DNA of 64,000 nt from Moniliella sp. 'wahieum' (lineage: Eukaryota): contig RSEE01000005.1 of assembly GCA_003971905.1 (NCBI GenBank), forward strand, positions 62,001-126,000, read 5' to 3'. Numbering within the stretch: position 1 is the first letter of the stretch; each line of letters opens with the position of its first letter. The position numbers and the translations under genes are program-made. Below the pieces are notes generated by a model. The model ran no database searches. It saw nothing but the letters and a program-made list of their open reading frames with translations, and had not been told where the DNA came from. Below are positions 1,719-62,804 of the stretch, piece after piece.

Positions 1719-2257
1719 TCGTTTTGTTGTTGTTGTTGAGGCTCAATTCTCTCACCTTTTTCGCTCTCTTGTCACTCCCTCTATACACATTCACTCACTG
1801 CCTGCGACCACTCTCGTATGTCTCCTTTGGATAATCAACATGCTTCTCACCCCATCGTTTCTTTTTCATCACCATATCGACATGGCATAAAAAGCCTGTT
1901 GAAATGCTCCTCTCCTCCCACAATAAGATGTTCTACTTTTCGCCATCGTCAACTTTGGCATGCGTGTATCAGAGATACGACACGGGCTTTCATTGACGGT
2001 GGCTGTAGAGTATATTGGTGGATGGGGCACGGCCTTTTCGACAACATGACACATTGTTGTTCCGTCGTAGTGCAATTGTGTGAGGAAGAGGTGTGACATG
2101 TGACATGCGAAGTATGATAAGCACACCGGGTGGGGGTGAGGGATTACATAAGAATGCGGGGCGCGGTGGGCTGGATGCTCCACGTTGGTGTCCAGGCCCA
2201 GGCAGCCCCACCAGCGTGCGCGCCAACCCCATCGCCGCGGACGGGACTGACTGGACG

Positions 2258-5200
2258 ATGGACGCGCCGCCGCTCAGTGACTTGACGGGGGATGTGTCGT
2301 TTGCGGCGCCGGCCAAGCTGCGGGTGCTGCTGACACCGGTGGGGCGCGGCGGGGCTGCGGACCGGCAGTTTGAGCACTGGGCCTCGCTTGTGCGTCGCTT
2401 TGGCACGCTGCACCTGGCGGACCTGCCGCGGAGTGCGCGCCCACGCGCCAGCGTCGCCCCCGGCAGTGCGCTGGCGCGCAAGGGCGAGGTGCACATCAGC
2501 TTTGCCACCTCCTACGACCCTGCCCATGCCTTCCTCGCCCCCTTTGCCCTTCCCGCACTGTGCTCGCCGTCGTGGGCCTCGCCACCGCTACACCGGCGCC
2601 CCTGGCCGACGACCACCACACCGCCACTGACGAGGACAACTCCGCTGGATCACTCGCGGGCGCCGTCGAAGAGCTCAAGCGCGCCCATCCCGGAGCTCTG
2701 ATGCATCGTGTCTAGCCTTCGATGCTGCCCAGCCCGTCGCTGCGCCCTCCGACCCCGCAGGCGACTTGGGTGCCGTCGAGGGCGCGGATGGATCGGGGGA
2801 GGGCGAGGCCAATGGCCATGGCGGTGATGCTGACGAGCGACCGAGAATCCATGGAAAGCCTCCTCCACCACCGGCGCCTGGCGCAGCCAGACGAAGACCA
2901 CCAAGGGCGATTATGATCCCAATTCCTCTGCCGAGCGAGCTAAACTGCAGGCTCTCCATGCCCAGCTCTTGGGTGCTGGCATGGCCGAGAGCGGGATGGG
3001 CGAAGGCGGTGGAGAAGATGGCGACAACGTCAAGCACGCCCAGGACGAATGCTCGTCATCCCTGCCCACCGTGCCGACGGTAAGGACGTTCGTCACCACG
3101 TCAAGACCGCATTGGCCGATGTCATCTCGGCCCTGCTAGATCAGCTAGAGGAGATGGTGGACACACTCAAGGGTGTCCCGCTCGAAACGCCACGAGACAC
3201 GCTCGATGGTGGGCTGTCGTCGCTGCTGACTACTTCCCAGCACCCAACTGCCTCACCGCCCCAGACGCCCGAAGAAGTGGGGGAAACTGTGTTTGGCATT
3301 GCGCCTGATTCACGCAATTCGGGTGGCAGTGGGACGTGGGACCGCGCTTCGTCCCTTTTCTCTTTTCCGGAAAACCTGAGCCATCGTCCGGCACCCCCAT
3401 CAAGGCCATGGGTGGTGGCCAACAGCCGGAATCGCTTCAGTTTGCCCGGTCCATCTCTCTCTCCTCCAGCTCCTCGACTAACCTTTCCCGTCCCCCGAGC
3501 ATTGCGCCCAAGCGCATCAGCTCCGCCTGGCGTAAAACCACACCGGCAGCTCCGGTCCGCAGGGTGAAGGACGTCACACCAAGATCGTGGCCGACGTGTA
3601 TCTCCTCTCAGGCGACTGTGGAACGCCATGGCGCACTACGATTTGGCTATGAAGTGGATGGGGAAAGAACGTTCCTTAGCTGGCGGCCGCGATGCAGTCT
3701 GGTTTGCTTCAGCCCTCGAAGGCTGGGCTGTGACACGCGCCTGATGGCCCGCTTGGGCAAGGTGTGGAGGAAAGGGTAAGTATCCTATATTTTCTTCCTA
3801 TCTTGAATGCGTTTGCTCACCTTAACTCCAGGCTACCCCGCTTACCGTCGCTGTCGGCAAGGACAAGGACAAAGAGCAAGCCAAGCGCGAAAAGGAGAAG
3901 GATGGTACGGCCGACTTGCCTTATGAAGGTTTGCCTGGGAAAGCATTGCCAAGGCGTACACGGTGGCCATCAGCATCTATGCCAAATGCTTTCTCCGCTG
4001 TCTGTCCTTCTAGCGCCAGCCAAAGCTGTTTCTTCTAATTCTCCCACCGACTTTACCCACCCACTCATCCATGCCACTGCCTGTGTCCAGTACTCACGGT
4101 TCCTTTTGGCCATCTGGAGCTGCCGTGGATGGAACGGCGAGTGCTTTGACCAGCTTCTCTATGGAGGTACCCCTCTTCTCCTTCGAGGCGACGGCCCAGC
4201 TCCAGATGAGGCCAGCCTCATCAATGGTCCCTCGATGCTGGTGTGCGGCGGGACGAGGTAGCGGCGGCTGCGAGCCAAGCGCTGACGCTTTCTGTACCGG
4301 CGCTCAAGGCGCGGGACCAAGTGGATGTGCTTTCCTCAATGGCGAGCCTGTTTGGCTGGATTGGTTTCGTGCGAAGAGAAACGTACCTCCTGCGCCGTCT
4401 TCTGGCCAGCGTGATGGATTGGCTTCACGCTGCCGCTCACGCTGGGGTGGATATCCTGCGCATCCGTCTAGGTGAGGTGGCGCCTGGCTTGCATGTGATC
4501 TACTCCCCGCACCGGGGCAAGGCGGACTACGATGCCCTTCTCGTTCTTGCCGCCCAGGTATGCGATACATATGGGATCCAGTGGATGAGATGTTGTTCAC
4601 GTGCCTGACGACCATGCATTGGCGCGTACTCGCGATGTCCGCCGTCTGACCTCCTTGGGTACCTTACGGCCCGAGGCGCACGCCAGCTTTGGGCACGCGA
4701 ACGATATCGTCCCCTCGACGGCGAGGGGAAGGGTTGAACGATGCATTGTTGGAAATGCACGCCGAAGCCTTTGGCTGGGACGAGGTCCAGGCGCTGGTTG
4801 TGAAAGATGCACTTGCCATTGCCGAAACGGTGGGCGACCCCATTGCGATGGCTGTCTTTGCCTCGGTCTTGTTACGCGACTTCGCCCCCTTTTGCCTAAG
4901 GCGAACAGGCGCAGCTCGTTGCCGGACTGAACCATTGGTGCGGAACGAGCGGGATGTGTTTGTTTCGCCTGATGACAACGAACCAGGCAAGCGCAACGGA
5001 AAGACCGTGGTGCAGTACTGGGGCCCGCGCCAGCTCGTGTGCCGCATGGACCTGCTGACTCCGAGCGAGACCAAGAAGGTGACTGAACGCTCTCGGGCAC
5101 TCGATGCGCGGGCAAGCAAGAAGCCCAGCTCCATGCTGGTCGTAAGCGACGATGAGGTGACCACATCGGTGGTTCTGTACAACCCGTTGGATGTTCCGTT

Positions 5201-62285: not shown

Positions 62286-62804
62286 CAAGTCGGGTTCGAT
62301 TGGTGGGCACCTCAAGCGAAGGTGGAAGGCGAGCGATGGGGGTGGTGGTGCGCTGGAAGAAGACGAGAAAGAGCAAAGATAAGCGGTGCTGTGCTGATCC
62401 TGCCTCCGTTTGTCCCATGCCGTTTGCAACAGCAGCCGACGTTCGCTGCAACCAAACCACGCCAGTGTCATCTGCGTTTCTCTTGCTTTTCTTTTCCCTT
62501 TTCGGCTACGGCGGCCAAGCACGCGATTGAAACATTCAGCTGGTGTGATGGTCGGTGGACGCAGATCCTCTGGACCTGGCTAAGAGTAAGAAGTCTACCA
62601 CACTGCATGCATTGTGACATGTGACACTCGCTCCAGCAGGCCAGCGTCGCCAAGTATACGCGAGTCACGCGCGTCTCGCCATAGCATCCATGAGCCAGCA
62701 GCAGCGCATCCCACTGAGTATCAAATACATCATGCGCCACACCCAACCACCCTCCGCCCGGTCCGGGAGCAGGCACACTGCACTGCACCCGCTCGACCTC
62801 ACCC

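Follow-up and report, generated by a model that had tools for sequence, protein, structure and literature searches.

We analyzed a 64,000-nucleotide stretch of the genome of the fungus Moniliella sp. 'wahieum' (assembly GCA_003971905.1, contig RSEE01000005.1, positions 62,001 to 126,000 of the forward strand), here called the window, whose intergenic DNA carries short tandem arrays of 7-bp units built around a TNA core. The genes of the window encode fungal domains of TRS120, TAF5, GH3, GMC oxidoreductase, UPF3, KRE6, striatin, tetraspanin, amino-acid transporter, and ATG9 types, and the best named homologs of the amino-acid transporter are from Ustilaginomycotina. The assembly comprises 69.5 Mb in 223 contigs and contains the region as three collinear, diverged copies, namely, the window (on contig C5), C11:560-660 kb, and C110:60-160 kb. 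In alignable blocks, the window is mostly 78 to 93% identical to each of the other two copies, and these are 85 to 96% identical to one another; C17 and C62 form a second homeolog pair. The three copies may mean that the genome is hybrid or polyploid, or that haplotypes were pooled. Their divergence provides a natural before-and-after test of 7-bp events, and the existing assembly suffices to date and count such events.

A first-pass annotation of the window had listed tandem duplications of interrupted palindromes of the form NN-TNA-N'N', in which the flanks vary but are complementary to each other. All 19 listed positions hold the words given for them. Exact tandem palindromic heptamers occur at 11 (2092, 19188, 19219, 19278, 21473, 23372, 33545, 39898, 43576, 46809, and 62613), a heptamer with only a partial copy at seven (8323, 11684, 19871, 22563, 28938, 43918, and 46627), and the word at 21405 is a decayed variant with a TAG core. 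The pattern is real and extends throughout the genome. Compared to 30 local dinucleotide shuffles, the window contains 34 exact period-7 tandems versus 4.5, of which 19 have palindromic NN-TNA-N'N' units (0.03 in the shuffles), and in 20 other 10-kb tiles (200 kb) TNA palindromes account for 74 of 141 exact period-7 tandems (0.1 in the shuffles). In the comparison with other periods that the annotation had called for, the effect is lacking: only 6 of 95 period-5 tandems are TNA palindromes (control, 2.1), and the window holds 1, 0, and 0 palindromic units at periods 6, 8, and 9, respectively.

The rule was quantified on both strands of a 464-kb sample, consisting of 40 tiles from contigs C1 to C30 plus the window, with expectations from an order-3 Markov model. 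Two TNA cores with the same N separated by a 4-nt palindrome (rule 10-mers) were found 790 times versus 25 expected, a 31-fold enrichment. The version with complementary N reached 64 counts (2.5-fold), self-complementary cores (ANT, CNG, and GNC) with a palindromic spacer gave 1.0- to 1.6-fold, a 5-nt spacer with a centre base gave 1.2- to 1.9-fold, and spacer lengths other than 4 gave at most 3.8-fold. All 16 possible palindromic 4-nt spacers were found. The window holds 58 rule 10-mers at 45 loci and the 40 tiles (400 kb) hold 337 at 249 loci; if these tiles are typical, the genome would contain ~43,000 loci. One 14-mer alone has 1246 matches across the assembly, and its reversed control has 0. 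Of 104 rule sites in one homeologous copy, 41 recur unchanged in a second copy, which makes a base-calling artefact unlikely. No published account of this 7-base TNA signature was found in the literature searched, whose coverage excluded most subscription journals; these searches also gave no confirmation of the heptameric Ustilago maydis repeats that the annotation mentions.

Rule sites are clustered, with a neighbour at <300 bp for 60% of them compared to 28% of random TCA/TGA sites, and by inspection those of the window lie mainly 5' of genes. Conserved coding-like DNA makes up 37% of the window and contains 1 of the 58 rule sites, the one at 8318. Non-palindromic control sites are equally rare in the same DNA (2 of 46), so this test of the non-coding location stated in the annotation fails to single out rule sites. 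The annotation had further argued that TNA cores, as stop codons stepped through all frames, would be kept out of genes; the arithmetic is correct, but the argument is unnecessary since a +7 insertion already shifts the frame.

The flanks of the rule 10-mers point to how these sites arise. Simple duplication of palindromic heptamers predicts that both flanks match, whereas among 183 isolated 10-mers the repeat continues on one side only in 111, on both sides in 32, and on neither in 40, which indicates a product templated by one flank. In the one-sided 10-mers, the first base of the other flank matches in 26 of 111, approximately as expected by chance. Read from the sequences, the primary change thus appears to be ab-TNA-cd to ab-TNA-[cd d'c' or b'a' ab]-TNA-cd (primes denote complementary bases), in which five bases are copied and two are inverted, and the palindrome would be the product of the event and not its selected target. 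The length of a doubled 7-mer is kept, with the inner two bases of one copy replaced by the inverse of the other copy's end; what is left of the target duplication is a 5-nt direct copy that lies on either side, symmetric about TNA. PIF/Harbinger elements make 3-bp duplications and have a TNA-like preference, but their footprints were ruled out because copying and inversion extend to two further bases outside TNA at the 111 one-sided sites. The annotation had proposed as one mechanism that a symmetric nuclease picks palindromic NN-TNA-N'N' heptamers and duplicates them through a 7-nt stagger and fill-in. Such a nuclease would account for the 32 two-sided isolated sites and for pure arrays, but the one-sided sites largely refute it; moreover, the short alleles at homeolog indels are often non-palindromic, and single palindromic heptamers are enriched only 1.46-fold. 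We give this model almost no credence.

One-sided 5+2 sites begin with TNA in 218 of 351 cases (shuffle control, 1.0). The core N is C or G at 180 of 217 one-sided 5+2 TNA sites, a wider consensus is absent, and a neighbouring TNA in the 7-bp register is present at ~2 times background. Among other cores of one-sided sites, CNA is enriched (20 versus 3.3) and CNG, GNC, and ANT are at control level. On these grounds, together with the lack of N, N', N triples described below, we dropped microhomology as the cause and read TNA as a target preference. The same data bear on a template switch during replication or repair, in which the growing strand turns to the opposite strand for 2 nt and re-primes 5 nt upstream, or, in a variant, snaps back at TNA before re-priming. 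This would yield a direct plus an inverted copy with no need for an element, and the T-A pair flanking N could seed the fold-back. However, the self-pairing cores are those not enriched while the non-pairing CNA is, a fixed 2-nt turn with zero loop has no easy explanation unless a hairpin is sealed, and the signature is lacking in other fungal contigs: five contigs of other organisms (67.8 kb, including 3.9 kb from a close relative recovered in a metagenome scan) have 2 palindromic versus 25 other spacers. We consider a template switch improbable.

Comparison of the C11 and C110 copies (152 kb aligned; only clean-flanked indels counted) yielded 34, 17, 26, 29, 16, and 13 indels of 4 to 9 bp, respectively. 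The annotation had suggested calling 7-bp indel polymorphisms between strains; here, between homeologs, the 29 indels of 7 bp outnumber those of 5, 6, and 8 bp (17, 26, and 16). The TNA rule is followed exactly by 12 of the 29 and with one mismatch by 6; 4 fit around another core, and 7 do not fit. Among 1222 simulated slippages, by comparison, 25 follow the rule exactly and 92 within one mismatch (versus 12 and 18 of the 29). Four of five 7-bp indels between C17 and C62 also fit (three TNA cores and one TGG). Across 226 site comparisons between homeologs, the site is absent by a multiple of 7 in 31.

Pure arrays carry 2 to 7 cores. A single spacer is repeated in 69 of 95 triples of cores, and in 9 of the 15 triples with two different palindromic spacers both outer flanks are those that a left event plus a right event should leave, for which the chance is 1/256 each. 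An example is the mixed triple AC-TTA-GTAC-TTA-CATG-TTA-CA at 19296..19316, which we read as one left-type plus one right-type event at an AC-TTA-CA target. The annotation's idea that events regenerate their targets, so that arrays can grow, stands. Plain slippage, with the arrays then selected as binding sites in the form of E-box-, bZIP-, or TALE-like words, would fit the repeated single spacers as well as the clustering mostly 5' of genes. Yet all 16 spacers are used with no fixed recognition word, and the sites are often polymorphic (the 31 of 226 comparisons above). Slippage is also unable to produce one-sided sites or mixed triples and is contradicted as the origin, with 6 of the 29 C11/C110 indels being exact 5+2 products that are not pure 7-bp duplications. 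We therefore regard this explanation as very improbable, and the annotation's inference of a recurrent mutational process, as opposed to a transcription-factor code or simple slippage, is sustained by the 16 spacers, the one-sided sites, and the mixed triples. Pure arrays are compatible with later slippage: as in heptanucleotide microsatellites, they were probably lengthened in this way, but the founding event here is bound to TNA and generates inverted sequence that did not exist before.

Taken together, these data are best read as excision scars of a cut-and-paste DNA transposon, since the product has the geometry of a 7-bp target duplication combined with flush flank hairpins opened 2 nt from the tip. 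We think this reading probably correct, and the annotation's other proposal, footprints of an element with a 7-bp target duplication, is thereby the one that fits the 5+2 geometry best. A transposase would insert at ab-T(C/G)A-cd, duplicating these 7 bp, and excision would seal both flanks as flush hairpins in the fashion of RAG/Transib and MULE enzymes. A host nuclease of the Artemis/Pso2 type would then open the hairpins 2 nt 3' of the tip, as in known biochemistry, leaving the 4-nt 3' overhangs cd d'c' at the left end and b'a' ab at the right end. End joining would retain one overhang as the spacer and trim the other; alternatively, both strands may be ligated over a 4-nt mismatch that is resolved by replication. 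The predicted result is the sequence seen at the sites, ab-TNA-[4-nt palindrome from one flank]-TNA-cd, always +7, with the same N, and one-sided. Further hits on existing scars would give the mixed arrays that are observed, slippage may lengthen pure arrays, and frameshift selection would exclude scars from genes. If this is true, the genome is a readable record of roughly 40,000 transposon visits (extrapolated from 400 kb), it discloses which targets are preferred by an undescribed element that duplicates 7 bp, and it provides in vivo support for +2 hairpin opening in a fungus. Excision scars could then also found microsatellites and create palindromic words beside genes.

The chemistry invoked here is already known; what surprises is how large the scale is, that only a single product is seen, and that the agent is missing. 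In the parts of the literature consulted, Artemis opens hairpins mainly at +2, leaving 4-nt 3' overhangs (PMC2175297), yeast Pso2 cleaves 2 nt from the apex and is needed for repair of Ac/Ds hairpins (PMC3299998), and hAT, Transib, RAG, and Muta1 all form hairpins on the flanks (PMC5499845). The inverted length of 2 nt observed here agrees with the opening reported for both nucleases. Flank-templated inverted bases without a loop are likewise found as P nucleotides at V(D)J coding joints, where RAG hairpins are processed by Artemis:DNA-PKcs, and at Transib and Muta1 donor sites (PMC2175297, PMC5499845), and in this comparison the dominant length of 2 nt corresponds to +2 opening with a 4-nt 3' overhang. 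In contrast to these systems, the sites described here number in the tens of thousands, are fixed in the germ line, and show a single product that hardly varies, and Muta1 excision in yeast is reported as >90% precise. Excision of Ac/Ds (hAT) in Candida albicans, budding yeast, and plants, through flank hairpins and end joining as proposed here, similarly leaves short palindromic insertions at the repaired donor (PMC5873905). However, in the account given there, the Ac/Ds palindromes have the complement of the bordering base at their centre and 28 footprint types were seen among 128 Ds excisions, whereas our sites have an even 4-nt spacer without a centre, keep N, and are of one type. An Ac/Ds-type hAT footprint was rejected because the core N is kept and not complemented (790 versus 64) and because 5+3 and 5+4 products are near control (18 versus 16.7 and 13 versus 7.0, respectively). 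CMCT-clade elements duplicate 2 to 5 bp, compared to 7 bp centred on TNA here, and two basidiomycete groups in the same phylum as Moniliella, hAT7 of rusts and Kyakuja of Agaricomycotina, do duplicate 7 bp (PMC12730594). Sections 10 and 19 of that paper do not give a target consensus or footprints for either group. Kyakuja is described as having no terminal inverted repeats and so would escape the inverted-end scans used in this study; a hAT or KDZ domain was not detected here in searches that had no positive control.

Several observations weigh against a transposon as the source. Inverted lengths other than 2 on the 5-nt copy are hardly enriched, although Ds leaves many footprint types elsewhere, and no footprint set in the literature consulted is as uniform; the N, N', N order expected of 3-nt microhomology occurs in 0 of 95 triples; and a plain 7-bp duplication is retained at only 5 of 139 sites with unrelated spacers. 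Even allowing one mismatch, 11 of the 29 7-bp indels fall outside the TNA rule. The direction of the event, short to long, is mostly inferred: polarising with the window as outgroup largely failed because its spacers align poorly, the single indel that could be polarised is an insertion but departs from the predicted product, and repeat families gave 3 single-copy 7-bp insertions versus 3 deletions, too few to orient the process. The transposon with a 7-bp, TNA-centred duplication whose existence the annotation had envisaged was not found: ~1.0 Mb (partly overlapping, of 69.5 Mb) scanned for inverted ends contained no element with a 7-bp duplication, and large homeolog indels with readable junctions include none. 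A CACTA-ended family of ~4 kb, present at C11:600901, absent from the C110 homeolog, and with 23 end matches genome-wide, was rejected because 3 of its 4 paired copies show duplications of 2 bp, whereas the scars need 7. Broken EnSpm-like (Transposase_21) genes on C17, C62, and C34 (L121:3181-4982, L123, and L122:3262-6872) have no detectable termini or duplication. Domains of hAT dimerisation, Plavaka, KDZ, and MULE type gave no match in Pfam searches, three of the four without a positive control.

The EnSpm-like remnants are split over several frames, and one is common to two homeologs. They share ~30% identity with the nearest public proteins and have 437 distant matches; protein searches with them recovered only themselves and one homeolog and did not find a longer homolog. 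These remnants bear on a further explanation, which retains the hairpin chemistry but dispenses with a travelling element. In this case a nuclease, either meiotic or transposase-like (domesticated or free), would cut T(C/G)A in open chromatin and leave a 7-nt duplication with hairpinned ends. The ~43,000 extrapolated loci with no matching element in ~1 Mb, the very uniform product, and the fixed remnants lacking termini are all in line with such an enzyme. On the other hand, a duplication with flush hairpins normally requires integration followed by excision, as established for transposases, and the remnants are broken. We consider this nuclease unlikely. We are similarly doubtful of the related statement that the lineage carries a transposase-derived or host enzyme, and no element, that keeps cutting T(C/G)A where chromatin is open and each time leaves the same +7 hairpin scar. 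Such an enzyme would act as an insertion mutator programmed by sequence, and tens of thousands of sites flanking genes would have been reshaped by it.

Within the window, the rule sites are distributed as follows. A two-sided TGA array (TGTGACA x2) lies at 2092..2107, and two one-sided scars (8264 and 8318) lie at 8262..8331, close to where the TRS120-like and TAF5-like genes meet. Four sites at 11385..12085 (11393, 11686, 11997, and 12074) are situated upstream of the TAF5-like gene and within a repeat element, in its left part. A dense ten-locus cluster lies upstream of the GH3 glucosidase gene (19002..19896), with members at 19002, 19190, 19221, 19280, 19332, 19407, 19719, 19748, and 19873 (two sites). 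It is followed at 21404..21493 by two arrays, GGTAGCC x3, which is decayed and carries a TAA-CCGG-TAA site, and TCTCAGA with four cores, and at 21977..23385 by five loci (21979, 22075, 22558, 22873, and 23367). Six loci (27568, 27957, 28303, 28671, 28789, and 28940) extend from the start of the GMC oxidoreductase gene to the end of the UPF3-like gene (27568..28949). A CGTGACG x3 array and then a TGA-CCGG-TGA site are found at 33545..33577, and upstream of the KRE6/SKN1 gene (39322..39929) are a one-sided TAA site (39322) and a CGTCACG array with a TCA-CTAG-TCA site (39898-39929). Another six loci (43053, 43578, 43913, 44214, 44443, and 44487) fall in 43053..44500, and four (46622, 46758, 46804, and 47041) in the spacer between the divergent striatin-like and tetraspanin-like genes (46622..47050). 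The rule 10-mer at 50647..50656 matches neither flank and is either decayed or due to chance. A one-sided scar, TGA-TCGA-TGA, is present at 52786..52797, and a second two-sided TGTGACA x2 array at 62613..62626 lies in the spacer from the amino-acid transporter gene to ATG9.

Repetitive sequences of other kinds were noted in and around the region. The segment C11:660055-663566 consists of 3.5 kb between inverted repeats, is common to C110, and holds a diverged frame that presumably resembles ubiquitin; its apparent 7-bp duplication, the one hit of the scans, was rejected since the inverted match extends farther out, so that the segment is the inner part of a longer inverted repeat, and there are only three ends. 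A 4.1-kb element in the window (~11429-15583) has long imperfect inverted ends, related copies on C23, C5, C91, C4, C11, and C110, and a broken gene with a weak F-box-like match at its start (E 0.035); its left end is damaged and no duplication was obtained, so it was set aside as a source of the scars. A 1.36-kb dispersed repeat at 20037-21394, which has ~200 bp in common with one end of that 4.1-kb element, begins with TC after an A, ends before a T, and has at least 20 other copies. We take it to be Helitron-like, and it was rejected as a source because the 20 other copies examined show no target duplication. C23:100001-110000 is a near-perfect inverted duplication with arms of >3 kb that reach the tile edges and a 2.6-kb spacer, which may be real or an assembly artefact. 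Finally, a short dispersed repeat is present at 21712-21846 and, in opposite orientation, at 24203-24380, with 15 copies in the sequence examined.

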